A DNA stretch of 64,000 nucleotides. Origin: an uncultured Muribaculaceae bacterium. GTDB lineage: Bacteria > Bacteroidota > Bacteroidia > Bacteroidales > Muribaculaceae. The position numbers and the translations under genes were made by a program. The notes beneath the pieces are model-generated. The model was not told the origin of the DNA. It did no database searches and saw only the letters and a list, made by a program, of their open reading frames with translations. The stretch spans positions 19,837-83,836 of the forward strand of contig CAJUIW010000002.1 of the NCBI GenBank assembly GCA_910586895.1, written 5' to 3'. Every line of letters begins with the position of its first letter. Positions within the stretch are counted from its first letter, which is position 1. Positions 13,154 to 62,042 of the stretch are shown here, piece by piece.

Positions 13154-14407
13154 ATGAAGAAGTTATTTGTTTATGCCGATTTTGATTGGCTTGATGCTCC
13201 TCGGTTGATTGGAGAATTGTCGTATGACTCGGTAAGGGGTGGCGAGACTTATGGCTTTGCTTTTGATAAAGAATGGCTTGCCAAATATCGTGATATTTTT
13301 CTGTCAGATGATTTGCAGAATTATTCGGGGCTTCAATATACGCGTCCCGGACACGATATTTTCTCGTGCTTTTCAGATGCACTGCCCGACCGTTGGGGGC
13401 GCACACTGTTGAATCGCAGGGAACAAATCACCGCGACAGATGAAAAACGGCCAGTTCGCCGGTTGACTTCATTTGACTATCTTATCGGCATTGATGATGC
13501 TTCACGAATGGGAGGCTTCCGTTTTGCGGAAAATCGAGATGGGAAATTCATAAATTGCGAGGAATCTTTGCGCGTGCCCCCATTGGCAAACGTAAGGGAG
13601 TTGATGCACGCCGCACATGAAATTGAGGCGAGCGAAGAGAAACATATTTTACCGGAGAAGAAATGGATAATACAGCTTCTCCACCCCGGCACGTCTTTAG
13701 GCGGCGCCCGCCCCAAGGCTTCTGTGATTGACGAAGACGGCAGGTTGACCATAGCAAAATTTCCTTCAAGGAAAGATGATTACGATGTAGCTTTGTGGGA
13801 ACATTTCTGTCACGTCATGGCCAAGAAAGCGGGTATAAATGTGGCGGAGACACGGACTATCATGGGTGAGGAATACCACATTCTTCTTTCCAAACGGTTC
13901 GACCGCGACGGGAGTGGGAAGAGAATACATTTTGCCTCAGCGTTAACACTCCTCGGATTGACAGATGGTGACAACGCATCAAATGGGTATGGTTATCCGG
14001 ACATCGTTGACTTCATATTGAGAAATGGGACTGATGTAGAGCAAAATCTCGAAGAGCTTTATCGCCGCGTTGTATTCAACATCATCGTCGGCAACTCTGA
14101 CGACCACTTCCGAAACCACGGTTTTCTGTTGACACGAAAGGGTTGGATTCTTTCTCCGGCATACGACATAAATCCAACCCTCGCCGAAGAACAGAGCTTG
14201 CTCATAAACCGCACTACAAACCTCTCAGACCTGAATATTCTGATGGAATCAGCCGAAGAGTATATGTTGCAGGATGAGAGAGCGAAGTCAATCATAAATG
14301 AAGTCAAAACCGCAATGAACCCATGGCGCACTGTCGCCGGTAAAATCGGCATACCCCAACGCGACATCGAAATGTTTGCGCCAAGGATAGATAAATGGTT
14401 GGAATAA
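13154..14407 (+). CDS. hipA: type II toxin-antitoxin system HipA-family serine/threonine kinase toxin
   Basis: 417 aa. HipA N-terminal coupling region, P-loop-like SLGGARPKASV, catalytic GNSDDHFRNHGFL, PAYDINP. Confidence 0.9.
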   Translation: MKKLFVYADFDWLDAPRLIGELSYDSVRGGETYGFAFDKEWLAKYRDIFLSDDLQNYSGLQYTRPGHDIFSCFSDALPDRWGRTLLNRREQITATDEKRPVRRLTSFDYLIGIDDASRMGGFRFAENRDGKFINCEESLRVPPLANVRELMHAAHEIEASEEKHILPEKKWIIQLLHPGTSLGGARPKASVIDEDGRLTIAKFPSRKDDYDVALWEHFCHVMAKKAGINVAETRTIMGEEYHILLSKRFDRDGSGKRIHFASALTLLGLTDGDNASNGYGYPDIVDFILRNGTDVEQNLEELYRRVVFNIIVGNSDDHFRNHGFLLTRKGWILSPAYDINPTLAEEQSLLINRTTNLSDLNILMESAEEYMLQDERAKSIINEVKTAMNPWRTVAGKIGIPQRDIEMFAPRIDKWLE

Positions 14408-48266: not shown

Positions 48267-50075
48267 ATGCCTAAGCATAGAAAATCGGCTGAGCTGGAGG
48301 AGAAGATTTCCATCCTCCCCACCACCCCCGGAGTGTACATGTATTTCGATTCCGAGGGTACGGTTATCTATGTAGGAAAGGCGAAGAATCTGAAGCGGAG
48401 AGTGTCGTCGTATTTCAACCGCACTCACGATTCGCTCCGCACCAATCTCCTTGTCCGCGCCATTGCGGACATGAAGTATATTGTAGTACCTACCGAGGCT
48501 GATGCTCTGAATCTGGAAAACGCCATGATCAAGGAGTATCAGCCTCGCTATAATGTGCTGCTTAAGGACGACAAATCCTATCCCTGGATTGTGGTGACAA
48601 AAGAACCGTTTCCACGGGTGTTCATGACGCGCCAGAAGATAAAGGACGGCTCCCGGTATTATGGCCCCTACACTGACAGCGGGGCGGCGCGGATGGTGCT
48701 CGAGCTTATCCACTCGCTCTATAAGCTACGCTCATGCCGGATGCTGATCACGCCGGAATATGTGGCCTCTGGCAAAGGACGGCTCTGTCTTGACTATCTC
48801 ATCAAGCGCTGTTCAGGGCCGTGTACAGGACTTGTCAGCGAGGAGGAATATGGGCAGCAGATAGAGCGTGTGAAGCAGATATTGCGCGGCGACCTTGCTG
48901 AGCTGAATGACTATCTCCGCAGCGAGATGATGCAGTATGCCTCGGAGCTGCGGTTTGAGGAGGCGCAAGCTGTGAAGGATAAGCTTGCCGTACTCGAGCG
49001 GTACACGGTGAAGAGCTCCATTGTAAGCCAGACGGTGGAGGATCTTGACGTATTCGGCATATACGACGACGGCTCGCCGGAGGTATTCATCAATTATATG
49101 CATGTGCGTCGCGGGGCGGTGGTGCGCAGCCTTACGCTTGAATTCCGCCGCCGTATGGAGGAATCGTCGGAGCAGCTTTTAGCCTACGCCATGGCCGAGG
49201 TTGAGCGCTCGCTTGAGGTGCGGTTCCGTGAGGTTGTAGTGCCGGTGCTTCCGGATGTGGAGATGCCGGAAGTGACATTCACCATACCGCAGAGGGGCGA
49301 CAAGGCAAAGCTCCTCGATGTGTCGGTGCGCAATGCCCGTCAGCACAAGGTGGACATGCTTAAGCATATGGAAAAGCGCGACCCGGAGCAGCGTACACAG
49401 CGGTTGCTTGAACGCATCAAACAGGACTTCCGGCTGTCGGAATTGCCGGCGCATATAGAGTGCTTCGACAACTCGAATATACAGGGCACGAATCCTGTGG
49501 CGAGTTGCGTGGTGTTCCGCAACGGAAAGCCCTCGAAAAAGGACTACCGGCATTTCAATATCAAAACCGTGGAGGGCCCTGACGACTTTGCCTCGATGAA
49601 AGAGGTGCTCACCCGGCGTTATACCCGATTGGTCGAGGAGGGTGAGGAGCTGCCTCAGCTTATAGTGGTGGATGGTGGCAAAGGACAGCTAAGCGCCGCT
49701 GTGGAGGCTCTTGATGCGATGGGGCTGCGCGGACGGATAGCCGTGGTGGGTATCGCCAAGCGGCTTGAAGAGATTTATTTCCCGGGCGACAGCGTGCCTC
49801 TCTATATTGATAAGAACAGCGAGACTCTGCGCGTGGTGCAGCATCTGCGCGACGAGGCTCACCGCTTCGGCATAACCCATCACCGCAACCGCCGCAGCAA
49901 GACTCAGGCTGTATCGGCTCTTGACTCAATAAAGGGTGTGGGTGAGAAAACCCGACAGGCTCTGCTGACGCATTTCAAGAGCGTGAAGCGCATCCGTGAG
50001 GCTGATATTGATGAAATTGCATCGGTTATAGGACCTGCTAAAGCATCTATTGTATACAATGCTCTGGATGACTGA
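48267..50075 (+). CDS. uvrC: excinuclease ABC subunit C
   Basis: 602 aa. GIY-YIG (GVYMYFD .. VIYVGKA), UVR domain, Endo V-like domain and C-terminal HhH. Confidence 0.95.
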   Translation: MPKHRKSAELEEKISILPTTPGVYMYFDSEGTVIYVGKAKNLKRRVSSYFNRTHDSLRTNLLVRAIADMKYIVVPTEADALNLENAMIKEYQPRYNVLLKDDKSYPWIVVTKEPFPRVFMTRQKIKDGSRYYGPYTDSGAARMVLELIHSLYKLRSCRMLITPEYVASGKGRLCLDYLIKRCSGPCTGLVSEEEYGQQIERVKQILRGDLAELNDYLRSEMMQYASELRFEEAQAVKDKLAVLERYTVKSSIVSQTVEDLDVFGIYDDGSPEVFINYMHVRRGAVVRSLTLEFRRRMEESSEQLLAYAMAEVERSLEVRFREVVVPVLPDVEMPEVTFTIPQRGDKAKLLDVSVRNARQHKVDMLKHMEKRDPEQRTQRLLERIKQDFRLSELPAHIECFDNSNIQGTNPVASCVVFRNGKPSKKDYRHFNIKTVEGPDDFASMKEVLTRRYTRLVEEGEELPQLIVVDGGKGQLSAAVEALDAMGLRGRIAVVGIAKRLEEIYFPGDSVPLYIDKNSETLRVVQHLRDEAHRFGITHHRNRRSKTQAVSALDSIKGVGEKTRQALLTHFKSVKRIREADIDEIASVIGPAKASIVYNALDD

Positions 50076-50366: not shown

Positions 50367-51968
50367 TTGCAGATGAAGAAATTTTACACAACACTCGCCA
50401 TGGCCGCCGCCATCGCATTCTCTGCGTCAGCCACCGTTCAACTGTCAAATGACTTTACCAAGGCTGCATCTTCACTCAACTCCGGAACTGTGAATCTTTC
50501 GGAACGAATCACTGACTACCCTGTTTCAGGCAATGCTTTCGGAGCTCCCGAACTTAAGGCTCCCGAAGGAACATGGAAAGAAGTCAGCACCGGAATCTGG
50601 TTTGAAGGACTGCTTGGCAACCGTTTCTCTGATGTTGAAAATACATGGTCATGGGACGTGAAGATAGAGGAGAATGAAGGCAATCCCGGATGGTACCGCC
50701 TGCTTCCTTATTCAGGATCCAATCCCGTTGCATCAATAATAGGTCAATCTGACGAAACCAACTACATGTATATCTGTGCTACAAATCCTGACAAGGTATA
50801 CATGGAACGTTTTGCCGCTTTCGGAAGCACGAATTTCACATTCCTGTCTGCTTGTCCTGAAACCGGTTTTACCAATCAGCTGTACGGAACCCTCACCGAT
50901 GGCGTGATTACATTTCCTTCCGGTACATTGGCATATGTCTCCAGTGGAAAATATTATCTTCTCAACGGGGAGTTCAAACTGGTTCTTAACAAGGAAACTT
51001 ACAAGGACTACACCATGACCTTCGATGTTGAGCTGTGCAATGCGGACAATGCTCCGATTTTCGAGCTTACCACAGGTGCTGATCTGGATGCTGTCTATAT
51101 GACAGAACTTGCCGGCGTTTATCCCATGAATGCCCAGAATGCCGATGTAGTCGTTGCAAGAGGTATTGATATAACACAATACAAGAATAAGCGTGTGCAG
51201 TATCCGTTTAATGGTGCATCAGCTCCCGGTGTCCACACTTTCCTCGTAGTAGGTTTGGATGCTGCCGGAAATATCAAGGAATCAACCGCGCAGTATGCTT
51301 TCAACATGGCTGATGATGATTCAAACTGGGGCGATTCAATTAAAGCTACATACAAGGAAGGTATCCTCAGCCAGATGTTTAGTGATGTTGATGCTGAAGA
51401 TCTGACTGTTTTTGTTCAGGAACACAAGACAAAGCCCGGCTACTTCCGTATCGGTGAGGCTTATGCCACCCACAGCATGTTTGGAGGGAATGCCGTTGAC
51501 CACAAGGAAGGACACGCTCACTACATGTATATCGATGCAACCAACCCCGATCAGGTATATCTCGAACCGAGCGCACTTGGTGTATCTGTAGGCCCGAGCT
51601 GGGGTGAAGCATGTGCTTATTCATGGGGCTATATCTATACTCTCGGTGGCAATCAGGGTCAGGGCGTTACCGATGGCGTCTACGGAACCTTCAAGGATGG
51701 TAAGATCACAATACCGAAAGGCAACATCATGCTCAGCCAGAAGAAGTATTCAAAAGGCTCATTCCTGCAGCTTCCTTCTTCAGACGACTTCGTTGTTGAG
51801 TTGCCCGAGGATTATGCCGCTATCGACGGTGTGGTTATGGATGGCGACAATACCAACGCTCCTGTTGAATACTTCAACCTCCAGGGTGTGAAGGTTGCCA
51901 ATCCCGCCGAAGGTGGTATCTATATCCGCCGTCAGGGTTCGGACGTGAAGAAAATCTATGTAAAATAA
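50367..51968 (+). CDS. secreted protein with internal domain duplication and T9SS C-terminal sorting domain
   Basis: Signal peptide (AFSASA). Two homologous modules (..GWYRLLPY..NYMYICATNPDKVYME.. and ..GYFRIGEAY..HYMYIDATNPDQVYLE..). C-terminal VEYFNLQGVKVANPAEGGIYIRRQGSDVKKIYVK is a T9SS CTD pattern. Confidence 0.7.
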   Translation: MQMKKFYTTLAMAAAIAFSASATVQLSNDFTKAASSLNSGTVNLSERITDYPVSGNAFGAPELKAPEGTWKEVSTGIWFEGLLGNRFSDVENTWSWDVKIEENEGNPGWYRLLPYSGSNPVASIIGQSDETNYMYICATNPDKVYMERFAAFGSTNFTFLSACPETGFTNQLYGTLTDGVITFPSGTLAYVSSGKYYLLNGEFKLVLNKETYKDYTMTFDVELCNADNAPIFELTTGADLDAVYMTELAGVYPMNAQNADVVVARGIDITQYKNKRVQYPFNGASAPGVHTFLVVGLDAAGNIKESTAQYAFNMADDDSNWGDSIKATYKEGILSQMFSDVDAEDLTVFVQEHKTKPGYFRIGEAYATHSMFGGNAVDHKEGHAHYMYIDATNPDQVYLEPSALGVSVGPSWGEACAYSWGYIYTLGGNQGQGVTDGVYGTFKDGKITIPKGNIMLSQKKYSKGSFLQLPSSDDFVVELPEDYAAIDGVVMDGDNTNAPVEYFNLQGVKVANPAEGGIYIRRQGSDVKKIYVK

Positions 51969-58044: not shown

Positions 58045-58070
58045 TAAATTTGCAATTCGCGAATCGCAAA
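58045..58070 (+). promoter_or_regulatory. -7 promoter box (TAaaTTTG) overlapped by a 22-bp palindrome (candidate operator)
   Basis: TAAATTTG at 58045-58052. TTTGCAATTCG|CGAATCGCAAA at 58049-58070 pairs at 10 of 11 positions. Confidence 0.5.
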
Positions 58071-58082
58071 TTCATTTCAAAT

Positions 58083-58616
58083 ATGGCTAAGAATCACAAT
58101 GGTATGCGACCACAGGATATAGTAATATTGCTTAAAAAGGTCACGGACAAAGGCCGTGGGCTTCTGAACGGGCAAATTGCAAAAGAATTATGCATCAGCG
58201 CTTCTGAGGTATCGGAGGCATTGGAGCGTTGCCGCATTGCACGTTTGGTGGATACAACCAAGCAACGTGTGAATATCCTTGCTCTGGAGGAGTTTCTGGT
58301 ACATGGTTTGAAATATGTGTTTCCGGTGCAACCACAAAGTGTGGTTCGAGGTGTTGCCACTGCAATATCTGCCTCACCGATGAAAGAAAAAATCGTGAGC
58401 GGAAATGAGCAGTATGTGTGGCCGGATGCAAAGGGCAATATGCGTGGCACTGCCATTACACCGCTCTACAAGACAGTTCCGGCAGCTGTTGCTGCAGATG
58501 ATATGCTCTACAAACTGCTGGCTATCGTTGACACGTTGCGCATAGGCCGTGCGCGGGAGGTGGAGATTGCAAAAGTAGAACTTAAATCCCTACTCGCAGG
58601 ATATGATGTCAAGTAA
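58083..58616 (+). CDS. winged-helix DNA-binding protein (AbiEi-like antitoxin/regulator candidate)
   Basis: 177 aa. N-terminal wHTH-like segment RPQDIVILLKKV..GQIAKELCISASEVSEALERCRIARLV. Start chosen downstream of the promoter/palindrome. Overlaps the next gene by 14 nt. Confidence 0.6.
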   Translation: MAKNHNGMRPQDIVILLKKVTDKGRGLLNGQIAKELCISASEVSEALERCRIARLVDTTKQRVNILALEEFLVHGLKYVFPVQPQSVVRGVATAISASPMKEKIVSGNEQYVWPDAKGNMRGTAITPLYKTVPAAVAADDMLYKLLAIVDTLRIGRAREVEIAKVELKSLLAGYDVK

Positions 58617-59301
58617 TTTGGAACGATTGAAGATTATAGCCGAAGGGCTTGGAGAGCTGAACAAGCAAGTCGCGTTTGTCGGAGGTTCTGTTGCGGAACT
58701 TTATGCAGACAATCCTGCTGCAACCGAAATCCGTATGACCGAAGATGTAGACTGTGTGATTGAACTGGCTACATACCGTGGACTATATGAATTGGAGGAT
58801 ATAATCCGCAAAAAAGGTTTTGCTAATGATACCACTCCCGGCGCACCGATATGCCGTTGGACATACAAAGGGGAAACGGTAGATATCATGCCTGATGACC
58901 GAAACGTACTTGGCTTTACAAACCAATGGTATAAACCGGCTTTTGCTCACCGTGTCAAGGTTGAATTGTCCGATGGTACACCTGTCTTCATCTTTCCGGC
59001 ACTTTATTATGTCGCTACCAAGATTGAAGCAATCAAAGGACGCGGAGGTAATGATTTGCGCTTTTCGCATGACTTTGAGGATCTGATTTATGTCCTGAAT
59101 AACTGTGACGGGATTGTCAGCATGTTCGATTCGGAGGAGAATGAGGCACTGATATCTTATCTGGCGACATGGGCCAATGAAATGATTGTCCGACAGAATG
59201 GGCGGGAGGAGATAGAATGCGCATTGCCATATGGTGATTATGAACGCCTTGATTATATCCTTGAAATTCTTTCACATTTTGCAAAGGGATACCGCCAATG
59301 A
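58603..59301 (+). CDS. minimal nucleotidyltransferase-fold protein (AbiEii/DUF1814-like toxin candidate)
   Basis: 232 aa. Pol-beta-type NTase signature FVGGSVAELY-x12-MTEDVDCVI plus a downstream acidic strand GETVDIMPDD. Confidence 0.6.
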   Translation: MMSSNLERLKIIAEGLGELNKQVAFVGGSVAELYADNPAATEIRMTEDVDCVIELATYRGLYELEDIIRKKGFANDTTPGAPICRWTYKGETVDIMPDDRNVLGFTNQWYKPAFAHRVKVELSDGTPVFIFPALYYVATKIEAIKGRGGNDLRFSHDFEDLIYVLNNCDGIVSMFDSEENEALISYLATWANEMIVRQNGREEIECALPYGDYERLDYILEILSHFAKGYRQ

Positions 59302-60062
59302 AAATCCAGTATGCTTCAGATCTGCACCTCGAATTTGGCGCAAACTCAGTTTATATAAAGAACAAACCGTTGATTCCGATAGGCGATGTGCTTGTTCTGG
59401 CCGGAGATATTGGCTATCTGAATGATGACCTGTATTTCAAGCACCCATTCTGGGATTGGGCAAGCTACAACTTTGAGCAGGTCATCGTCATTCCGGGCAA
59501 TCATGAATTGTATAAATATTTTGACATAAACGAACTGCACGAAGACTGGAACCTGCAGATCAGGGGTAATGTGAGATGCGTATATAATTCAATAATCAAT
59601 CTTGATACTGATACCGATTTGATTGCATCGACATTATGGTCGGAAATTCGTGATGGAGATGCTTGTTATACAGAGCGGTGTGTAAGTGATTTTCATCGGA
59701 TACGCCACGGTGAATGCCGATTGACTTGGGAGCGGTTTAATGATGAACACCGCCGTTGTCGCGAATTTATTGAGAGGAGCGTTCAAAATAGTAGTGCGGA
59801 AAATTTAATAGTGGCAACTCACCATGTGCCGTCATTTCAATTGATGGCTGACGAATTCACTGATAGTCCGATTAACGGAGCGTTTACTTCCGAATTGGGC
59901 CGTCTTATCGCGAACAGCCGTATAAAATACTGGATATACGGTCATTCACATCGTAATATAGATAAGGTTATTGGAAATACACGTTGCGTATGCAACCAGC
60001 TTGGATATGTTTCACATGGCGAGCACCATACATTCCGATCTGATACTGTGATAGAGATATAA
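59298..60062 (+). CDS. calcineurin-like metallophosphoesterase
   Basis: All canonical motifs are present: SDLHLE (DxH), LAGDIG (GD), IPGNHE (GNHE), VATHHVP (H), YGHSHRN (GHxH). ATGA overlap with the upstream gene. Confidence 0.85.
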   Translation: MKIQYASDLHLEFGANSVYIKNKPLIPIGDVLVLAGDIGYLNDDLYFKHPFWDWASYNFEQVIVIPGNHELYKYFDINELHEDWNLQIRGNVRCVYNSIINLDTDTDLIASTLWSEIRDGDACYTERCVSDFHRIRHGECRLTWERFNDEHRRCREFIERSVQNSSAENLIVATHHVPSFQLMADEFTDSPINGAFTSELGRLIANSRIKYWIYGHSHRNIDKVIGNTRCVCNQLGYVSHGEHHTFRSDTVIEI

Positions 60063-61966: not shown

Positions 61967-61969
61967 TTG

Positions 61970-62042
61970 TGACCCCGGAGAGGCTCGAACTCTCGACCCA
62001 ATGATTAAGAGTCATTTGCTCTACCAACTGAGCTACGGAGTC
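61970..62042 (-). tRNA. tRNA-Lys (anticodon CTT)
   Basis: A 73-nt cloverleaf folded by hand: acceptor GACTCCG/CGGGGTC, D-arm GCTC/GAGC, anticodon stem AATGA/TCATT with loop CT-CTT-AA, T-arm GAGAG/CTCTC with TTCGAGC loop. No CCA is encoded. Confidence 0.9.

Follow-up and report, generated by a model that had tools for sequence, protein, structure and literature searches.

We analyzed a three-gene cassette in a 64,000-nucleotide (nt) stretch of DNA from an uncultured Muribaculaceae bacterium (contig CAJUIW010000002.1, positions 19,837 to 83,836 of the forward strand, GenBank assembly GCA_910586895.1; hereafter, the window) and found that its last gene, a metallophosphoesterase (MPE) gene that we call g3, recurs in gut Bacteroidota and on mobile elements as the coupled neighbor of nucleotidyltransferase (NTase) gene pairs. 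In the cassette, g3 follows a winged helix-turn-helix (wHTH) gene, g1, and an NTase gene, g2. A preliminary description of the locus, made from its letters alone, had proposed an AbiE-like wHTH and NTase pair with a co-translated phosphoesterase as a candidate tripartite toxin–antitoxin or anti-phage module, and this proposal is supported by the MenT1-like fold of g2, the regular pairing of g1 and g2, the operator in front of them, the linkage of g3, and a natural fusion of g2 with g3. It is possible, and we put this forward tentatively, that g3 is a dedicated, operon-encoded reactivator of auto-phosphorylated MenT/AbiEii-type toxins, a module passed among at least three sequence-unrelated toxin families in gut Bacteroidota and mobile elements and once fused to its partner.

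The three overlapping open reading frames (ORFs) lie on the forward strand and span 58050–60062 when the first is counted from a TTG; with an ATG start, the cassette covers 58083–60062. The listed frame of g1 (58050–58616) begins at the TTG, which sits within the promoter and operator element described below. The in-frame ATG at 58083, giving a protein of 177 amino acids (aa), is almost certainly the true start, because public gene calls and 27 of 27 aligned homologs begin there. The coupling of the three frames reported earlier is confirmed by the ORF list and by reading of the sequence, with an overlap of 14 nt between g1 and g2 (58603–58616) and an ATGA overlap between g2 and g3 (59298–59301). 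The frames are not chance ORFs, because a large protein collection holds 1,400, 1,419, and 6,902 homologs of g1, g2, and g3, the family sizes of the first two agreeing with each other. RefSeq entries in the host (uncultured Muribaculum sp.) name the products hypothetical protein, hypothetical protein, and metallophosphoesterase, respectively.

The second gene, g2 (58603–59301, forward strand), encodes a 232-aa MenT/AbiEii-like NTase and is, judging by its modeled structure, a candidate for the toxin-like partner in the cassette, its toxicity being a prediction. The Pol-beta NTase signature noted in the preliminary description holds across 21 homologs, in which the motifs G27-G28-S29, D48-V-D50, D94 (in VDIM, residues 93–96), K140, and D157-x-x-D160 vary little or not at all. 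An AlphaFold2 (AF2) model of the protein (predicted local distance difference test score, pLDDT, 90.3) was searched with Foldseek, and the top five Protein Data Bank (PDB) matches were all MenT1 (8an4, 8an5, and 8rr5; E 9.5e-6 to 6e-4), with probability 1.0 and target template modeling (TM) scores of 0.51–0.63, the best being 8an5_B at E 9.5e-6. Aminoglycoside nucleotidyltransferases ranked after MenT1. The predicted NTase fold is thus confirmed, the closest PDB fold being that of a toxin of the DUF1814 superfamily. Sequence searches were weak: the best PDB matches had E values of 0.2 (5uvd) and 1.5 (MenT1), no family was matched in Pfam (E ≤ 1) or NCBIfam, and no PADLOC AbiEii model was matched at E ≤ 1. 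Comparison by hhalign with the AbiEii genes of g3-linked loci gave a probability of 1.6%, with the motifs nonetheless aligning in register, and some NCBI records label g2 homologs as "AbiEii/AbiGii toxin family." Two other assignments were rejected. A CBASS-type CD-NTase had a single structural match (6wt9, CdnE; E 0.024, TM 0.25–0.31), far below MenT1, and no PADLOC CBASS model; for a type VII toxin–antitoxin (TA) system of the HEPN-MNT kind, neither g1 nor g2 had a HEPN or MNT match in Pfam, NCBIfam, or PADLOC, and the partner of the NTase is a wHTH protein.

The first gene, g1 (58083–58616, forward strand), encodes an N-terminal wHTH and a conserved C-terminal domain. The winged-helix segment claimed previously is backed by weak but consistent evidence: residues 7–84 matched profiles of MarR/ArsR-type winged helices (best E 1.4e-3), and the match to Pfam Fe_dep_repress was 0.06, leaving the protein assigned to no Pfam family. 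The C-terminal half is conserved among the 27 aligned homologs yet matches nothing. In its layout, g1 resembles an AbiEi antitoxin, having an N-terminal wHTH and a C-terminal domain and being the first gene and overlapping a toxin-like gene, and we consider it a candidate antitoxin- or autorepressor-like partner of g2. The expectation that g1 and g2 would belong to the AbiEi and AbiEii families was not borne out by Pfam, PADLOC, or hhalign; g1 had no match at E ≤ 1 to the AbiEi models of Pfam and PADLOC, and its hhalign probability against the AbiEi proteins of g3-linked loci was 0.2%. The two proteins instead gave adjacent, near full-length matches to the PADLOC models PDC-M21A (g1, 2e-48) and PDC-M21B (g2, 9e-46).

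Upstream of g1, we found a palindrome at 58047–58072 with 13-nt arms, AATTTGCAATTCG|CGAATCGCAAATT, that contains one mismatch and has its center 24 nt upstream of the ATG. Its left arm overlaps a candidate Bacteroidetes –7 promoter element, TAAATTTG (58045–58052, forward strand; read from the sequence), which fits the Bacteroides consensus, TAnnTTTG; a scan of the cassette for sigma-70 promoters and terminators gave nothing above chance. The putative g1-binding operator sequence is TTTGCAATTCGCGAATCGCAAA, and its 22-nt core occurs just once in the window, zero matches being expected by chance. The core TTTGCAATTCGCGAATTGCAAA is kept nearly perfectly at –36 to –12 in some 25 loci with g1 proteins of 58–90% identity, and distant loci in Chitinophagaceae and Dyadobacter carry related palindromes with a TTCGCGA core at the equivalent position. 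We presume the palindrome to be the site at which the wHTH of g1 acts as an autorepressor. The overlap of a conserved palindrome with the putative –7 box is what one would expect of an autorepressor operator and may point to negative autoregulation of the AbiEi type.

To define the core of the system, we scanned for g2 relatives using one genome per species and obtained 74 loci, mostly from Bacteroidota with a few from Ignavibacteriota. In 68 of these, g2 was immediately preceded and overlapped by a g1 homolog, the rest being contig ends or artifacts of ORF picking. A profile search with g2 returned 4,575 clusters at 50% identity, and no g2 relative was found in IMG/VR. Because membership in the AbiEi and AbiEii HMM families fails, we file g1-g2 as PDC-M21, a divergent relative of AbiE and not AbiE itself. 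The PDC systems are 145 candidates predicted from their embedding in BREX, DISARM, or type I restriction–modification loci (Payne et al., bioRxiv 10.1101/2024.01.29.577857), and supplementary table 8 of that work lists PDC-M21 as FAM_01665>>FAM_00091>>FAM_01402, with a two-family form rejected. As for the third family, PADLOC scanning of 18 neighboring proteins did not point to it, and g3, the MPEs of two more distant loci (L030 and L035, described below), and eight other neighbors matched no PDC-M21 model; it is possible that a three-gene form is already cataloged, though undescribed. The g1-g2 family has some defense-island support, since related loci lie near PD-T4-6 kinases, PDC-S41, HEC-05-like proteins, a KAP NTPase, JetD, and a PARIS-like pair. 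In two Bacteroidales metagenome-assembled genomes (L041:5698-7581 and L046:5685-7646), Ser/Thr kinases matching PD-T4-6 and mad6 start 7–17 nt after g2, which could be plain defense-island adjacency or another phosphoregulatory partner. This support does not extend to the window copy, which lies outside any defense island between a gene for a PKD-domain protein and one for a GH63 enzyme.

The third gene, g3 (59298–60062, forward strand), has a start codon overlapping the stop codon of g2 and encodes a 254-aa calcineurin-type MPE. It matched Pfam Metallophos (PF00149) over residues 2–219 (E 5.4e-10; 40.5 bits, the gathering cutoff being 21.5) and phrog_1649 at 4.6e-43. The preliminary description considered every calcineurin-type motif intact, and among homologs all of them, D8-x-H10, G36-D37, G67-N68-H69-E70, H175-H176, and G215-H216-x-H218, proved invariant. 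A fold search with the AF2 model (pLDDT 76.6) gave 34 PDB matches at E ≤ 1e-3, all MPEs. The best by TM score was PptH (6unc, 0.55–0.60), followed by purple acid phosphatases, Rv0805, Dbr1, GpdQ, and MPPED2; PptH was also the best PDB match by sequence, weakly (E 0.016). In the MPE superfamily, PptH hydrolyzes a phosphodiester on a protein serine and acts on holo-carrier proteins. We also considered g3 as a Ser/Thr phosphatase of the PPP family, whose signature is GDxHG, GDxVDRG, and GNHE, and rejected this assignment: g3 carries DLH, GDIGY, and GNHE, and there was no PPP enzyme among its fold or sequence matches. The N-terminal part matched weakly the single-gene PADLOC candidate PDC-S10 (1.7e-8).

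We studied the linkage of g3 from both sides. The 25 loci closest to the cassette have a g2 of at least 63% identity and come from gut Muribaculaceae and their relatives; in about 21 of them, g2 is followed by g3 with a 4-nt overlap, and the ATGA is kept over g2 identities of 63–82%. Three loci (L006, L013, and L025) lack g3, as do nearly all g1-g2 loci farther removed. With g1-g2, g3 occurs only in gut Bacteroidales and is a lineage-restricted accessory, not a component of the core pair. Among g3 genes, those found with g1-g2 group in a clade of their own (mean identity 0.76 within it, 0.60–0.64 to the other classes), so the association is of long standing rather than a recent accident.

Seen from g3, the picture is broader. 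In a metagenome set of 80 loci in which g3 is 60–69% identical, 68 had enough upstream sequence, and only 2 of these 68 placed g1-g2 beside g3; elsewhere g3 closes other operons, in which stop and start codons once more overlap. The first partner set consists of c2 (323 aa) and c1 (258 aa), the latter having an N-terminal NTase signature (GGT..RATKDID) and subthreshold AbiEii matches. No PADLOC, Pfam, NCBIfam, or PHROGs model recognized either protein, and a PDB sequence search with c1 was uninformative; their sizes suggest that they may be the COG4861–COG4849 pair. The second set consists of bona fide AbiEi (PADLOC, 1e-56) and AbiEii (Pfam, 1e-43 to 1e-49), in two gene orders. The third, c5 (376 aa)-g3 (261 aa)-c3 (another Metallophos protein, of 193 aa), has no NTase (e.g., L086:2850-5345); its 16 loci (12 clusters, among L082–L099) form a tight g3 clade with an identity of 0.88. 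On IMG/VR virus-like contigs, 63 of 80 loci were c2-c1-g3, eight were g3-AbiEi-AbiEii in reverse order, one was c2-c1-g3-AbiEi-AbiEii, and a few were solitary; on one such contig, the g3-AbiEi-AbiEii locus (L224:5001-7298) adjoins a group II intron reverse transcriptase.

The pooled set contained 185 g3 genes in 80 clusters at 95% identity, of which 183 loci and 78 clusters were determinable. The commonest home was c2-c1-g3, with 120 of the 185 loci (L080, L093, L097, L100–L153, and 66 IMG/VR loci; e.g., L117:2254-4762). In total, g3 immediately adjoins an NTase pair, confirmed or putative, in 161 of 183 loci (88%) and 63 of 78 clusters, the remaining determinable loci being the 16 of the c5-g3-c3 type and six solitary copies on prophage-like contigs. 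The g1-g2-g3 loci in this set were reached by way of g2 and should be set aside in any estimate of frequency. The preliminary description had allowed that the phosphoesterase might usually stand alone in a housekeeping context; we did not find this, g3 being rarely with g1-g2 but almost always with some other NTase pair. Uniting the partner families by sequence was tried and rejected, as profile–profile comparisons of g1 with c2, g1 with AbiEi, g2 with AbiEii, and c1 with AbiEii were not significant; that of g2 with c1 reached a probability of 45% over the N-terminal 70 columns alone, likewise not significant.

Further MPEs accompany g1-g2. In L030 and L035, whose g2 proteins are about 50% identical, a different Metallophos protein, missed by the g3 profile, overlaps the g2 stop by 4 nt. 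We rejected these two as PPP phosphatases: the L030 protein, which carries GDIHG and GNHD, matched PP2A at E 0.035–0.1 and YfcE and SbcD equally weakly, and the L035 protein matched nothing. In Bacteroides (L026, B. hominis), a g3-like gene of 38% identity lies immediately upstream of g1, and a B. hominis assembly (L236; GCA_033042735.2, 2588–7659) has the order MPE (252 aa)-g1-g2 with the MPE upstream of the operator; two genes away from it lie an AAA_15/AAA_21 ATPase and a DUF4435 protein, resembling PARIS.

The closest association is a protein of 492 aa (P0402), returned by the profile search with g2, that joins a g2 domain at residues 3–226 (E 8.5e-81) to a g3 domain at residues 234–481 (E 4.1e-96). 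At the fusion locus (L250/L251:2502-4479), a g1 homolog lies upstream with a 17-nt overlap, together with the palindrome GTTCGCGATTCGCGAAC, and the locus adjoins JetD (Wadjet) and a KilA-N protein. The fusion (492–493 aa) is not an assembly error, because nine variants are spread over at least 16 contigs, which come from three sources and reach 401 kb in length. It places the MPE on the side of the toxin.

More distant relatives of g3 are found in phages. Such relatives, full-length and about 29–30% identical (phrog_1649), were found in 183 phage records, for the most part of jumbo phages, including Caulobacter phage CcrPW (L244, 72853–73614) and Brevundimonas phage Gurke (L249). In Dolichocephalovirinae, the relative lies inside an array of tRNA genes near peptide deformylase. 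This context was not seen in the Synechococcus B23, Vibrio 2.275.O, Stenotrophomonas RAS14, and Rhizobium P10VF phages, and the hint is weak because it is confined to one phage subfamily.

A function for an MPE in such an operon is suggested by recent work on related toxins. Under the influence of MenA1, MenT1 auto-phosphorylates at T39, as does MenT3 at S78 under that of MenA3, and the phosphorylated toxins are inactive (PMC11375011). AbiEi causes the same auto-phosphorylation in AbiEii, at T65, which is preceded by R63-S64; the phosphorylated form, AbiEii-p, is dephosphorylated in vitro by housekeeping PP2C, and a role for phosphatases in reactivation in vivo was stated to be unexplored (bioRxiv 10.64898/2026.01.19.700257). 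In our HMM alignment, the g2 segment irpTkDvD falls over prfTrDvD of MenT1, with T46 of g2 in the place of T39 and with D41 also in the segment. By sequence, g2 has the expected phospho-acceptor, T46 lying two residues before the catalytic D48 (R44-x-T46-x-D48-x-D50), and the motif R-x-T-x-D-h-D is present in 68 of 69 g2 relatives, in 40 of 40 c1 NTases, and in the three of three AbiEii genes neighboring g3.

The scheme that we infer, in its DNA binding, toxicity, tRNA target, auto-phosphorylation, g3 substrate, and role in defense, and in every step from the toxicity of g2 onward, is the following. The cassette would be one autoregulated operon and a three-component TA-type switch of the AbiE/MenAT kind. 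The g1 protein would bind the palindrome over its own promoter and neutralize g2, which, when active, would most likely add nucleotides to tRNA 3' ends and halt translation. By analogy with MenA1-MenT1 and AbiEi-AbiEii, g1 would drive g2 to phosphorylate its own active-site T46, producing a stock of inert phospho-toxin. Made in a fixed ratio to g2 by translational coupling, g3 would remove the T46 phosphate or an equivalent phospho-linked adduct, and the inert stock could be re-armed fast when g1 disappears or is blocked, as might happen during phage infection. We regard the removal of an inhibitory phosphate from a g2-type toxin by g3 as a serious possibility, if short of a probable one, because one orthogroup serves sequence-unrelated NTases that share just this active-site loop and because it is either produced in constant proportion to the toxin or joined to it in one protein. 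This reading, which we consider the most likely, was missing from the earlier proposals for g3, a second effector or an eraser of the nucleoside monophosphate (NMP) added by the NTase; we keep both as rivals.

Several points weigh against a phosphatase that reactivates the toxin. The fold matches of the g3 model are generic MPEs, none of them a PPP protein phosphatase. About two thirds of the g1-g2 loci have no MPE at all, and g3 is itself found without a recognizable NTase, both in the c5-g3-c3 loci and as solitary prophage-like copies. The commonest partner, c1, is a putative NTase (Pfam AbiEii, 0.003). Relatives of g3 occur in lytic and jumbo phages, where a toxin activator has no obvious use. 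With a constitutive phosphatase beside a kinase reaction driven by the antitoxin, phosphate would be added and removed in a futile cycle, unless the site is shielded by g1. Phosphorylation of g2 is itself something we infer by analogy with MenT1 and AbiEii, and the mechanism is not universal, because MenT4 escapes phosphorylation by its antitoxin (bioRxiv 10.64898/2026.01.19.700257).

The fusion and the coupling of g3 to the toxin rather than the antitoxin would also suit a second explanation, in which one RNA 3' end is the substrate first of g3 and then of g2: trimming by g3, or its removal of a 3'-phosphate, a 2',3'-cyclic phosphate, or part of the CCA, would be followed by extension by g2, making repair by the CCA-adding enzyme harder. 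Enzyme fusions mostly join steps on one substrate, the MPE fold includes RNA phosphodiesterases, with Dbr1 among the top fold matches of g3, and bacterial Pnkp joins an MPE healing domain to a ligase of the NTase fold. MenT3, moreover, acts on tRNAs ending in CCA as well as in CC(delta A), and species with trimmed 3' ends build up in vivo. Most g1-g2 pairs, however, work without an MPE, as do the characterized AbiE and MenAT systems, we found no nuclease-specific features in g3, and the g2 substrate is a prediction in the first place. We consider such a joint action on RNA unlikely.

If g3 instead removed the nucleotides added by g2 or repaired its target, it would serve as a second antidote and allow recovery from arrest, as one of the two proposals in the preliminary description had it. 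There is a precedent in the housekeeping enzymes RNase PH and PcnA, which trim MenT3-extended tRNAs and suppress toxicity, and the Dolichocephalovirinae relatives in the tRNA array would suit a tRNA-repairing phage countermeasure; that location, however, is found in one phage subfamily and is absent from the four other lineages checked. A toxin fused to its own eraser, or coupled 1:1 upstream of it, would be self-defeating, and the antidote of a TA system is normally the upstream gene. An eraser thus appears quite improbable.

Still more doubtful is an autonomous effector or nucleotide-signal phosphodiesterase, with its own target among DNA, RNA, or cyclic or linear nucleotides and merely co-regulated with g1-g2. 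The loci in which g3 stands without an NTase, the phage homologs that function without this NTase, the weak PDC-S10 match, and the fold matches to Rv0805, a cNMP phosphodiesterase, and MPPED2 are what such an enzyme would lead one to expect. The adjacency to an NTase pair in 88% of the determinable loci, mostly with overlapping stop and start codons, the independent recruitment of unrelated MPEs into the same slot, and the g2-g3 fusion, which argues for a shared function, speak against it; the nearest fold to g2, too, is a tRNA-modifying toxin, the CD-NTase match being poor (TM ~0.3, E 0.024). That g3 and g1-g2 are chance neighbors sharing an AT-rich insertion is scarcely credible, even with g3 absent from some two thirds of g1-g2 loci and most g3 genes not beside g1-g2, given the conserved ATGA overlap, the distinct and co-diverging g3 clade, the recurrence of the association with four partner sets, and the existence of the fusion.

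Returning to g3 as a reactivator of phosphorylated toxins, we compared the cassette with known systems. Like AbiE, formerly a type IV TA system and now reclassified as type VII (bioRxiv 10.64898/2026.01.19.700257), it has a core of two genes, a wHTH regulator followed by an NTase, with overlapping frames and an inverted repeat at the promoter. The motifs GG[ST], R-x-T-x-D-h-D, K, and D-x-x-D come in the same order in g2 and AbiEii, and genuine AbiEi-AbiEii pairs adjoin the same g3 orthogroup. It differs from AbiE in that g2 has 232 aa against about 285 aa in AbiEii, the C-terminal domain of g1 matches nothing, the AbiEi and AbiEii models of Pfam and PADLOC miss both proteins and profile–profile comparison is not significant, and canonical AbiE has no third gene.

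MenAT1 of Mycobacterium tuberculosis (MenA1/MenT1, Rv0078B/Rv0078A) provides the best structural match to g2, and the phospho-acceptor Thr and the catalytic Asp align. MenT1 acts as an NTase on tRNA 3' ends and is silenced when its antitoxin induces auto-phosphorylation (PMC11375011). The identity between g2 and MenT1, however, is only about 16%, MenA1 is small, binds two toxin protomers, and is without a wHTH or transcriptional autoregulation, whereas g1 has 177 aa, a wHTH, and a conserved operator, and MenAT1 contains no phosphoesterase gene. From PDC-M21, the cassette differs in that the published form has three families, g3 matches no PDC-M21 model, and the window copy lies outside a defense island.

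The activities that we propose for g3, toxin dephosphorylation or tRNA trimming, are supplied elsewhere by the housekeeping enzymes SaSTP and PstP, both PP2C, which act on AbiEii-p and MenT3-p, and by RNase PH and PcnA. These enzymes are unlinked and of other folds (PP2C, RNase PH, and class II CCA-adding enzyme), whereas g3 is an operon-encoded calcineurin-type MPE. PptH (Rv2795c) has the same five-motif dinuclear metal site as g3, but the two are 14–18% identical, and fold does not predict substrate in the MPE superfamily. A literature search combining AbiE or DUF1814 with metallophosphoesterase found, among the papers it covered, none linking them.

How the stock of phosphorylated MenT1, MenT3, or AbiEii is reactivated was left open in the work of 2024–2026, housekeeping phosphatases having been tried in vitro alone, and g3, coupled or fused to such toxins across four partner architectures, is a concrete and clonable candidate for the reactivator. 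Experimental handles include natural two- and three-gene versions, cultured or named hosts (Sangeribacter muris, which carries g1-g2-g3, and the cultured Bacteroides hominis), the fusion form, and a mutable Thr and metal site. PDC-M21 can now be read as a divergent relative of AbiE and MenAT, and the c2-c1-g3 operons, many of them on virus-like contigs, escape the current catalogs of defense systems. Should the phosphatase idea be wrong, the linkage would still make a phosphoesterase integral to many NTase toxin modules.

In base composition, the cassette stands out from its surroundings. Its GC content of 0.447, against a window mean of 0.533 (SD 0.034, 2-kb windows), is the lowest among the 311 sliding 2-kb windows. 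The AT-richness noted earlier is thus real in direction, but the size of the contrast, given as 35–48% against 65% from single lines of sequence, was overstated. In the source species, the cassette is fixed between the PKD-domain gene and the GH63 gene. It was present on 24 of the 24 contigs read, no cassette-free version being found among them, and no insertion boundary can be defined because all 24 carry it. We found no notable direct repeats flanking the cassette, and an Rfam search found nothing within it. A tRNA-Lys gene (CTT; 61969–62042, reverse strand) lies about 1.9 kb downstream and shows no sign of serving as an integration site for the cassette.

Two other patches of low GC content were observed in the window. 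One (12.4–14.6 kb, GC ~0.465) holds a gene for a HipA-like kinase toxin at 13154–14407 on the forward strand (Pfam HipA_C, 5.5e-50, and Couple_hipA), making it a second TA-type module in the window. The other (49.8–52 kb) holds a 533-aa ORF at 50367–51968 on the forward strand that has no Pfam match and lies just 3' of uvrC (48267–50075).

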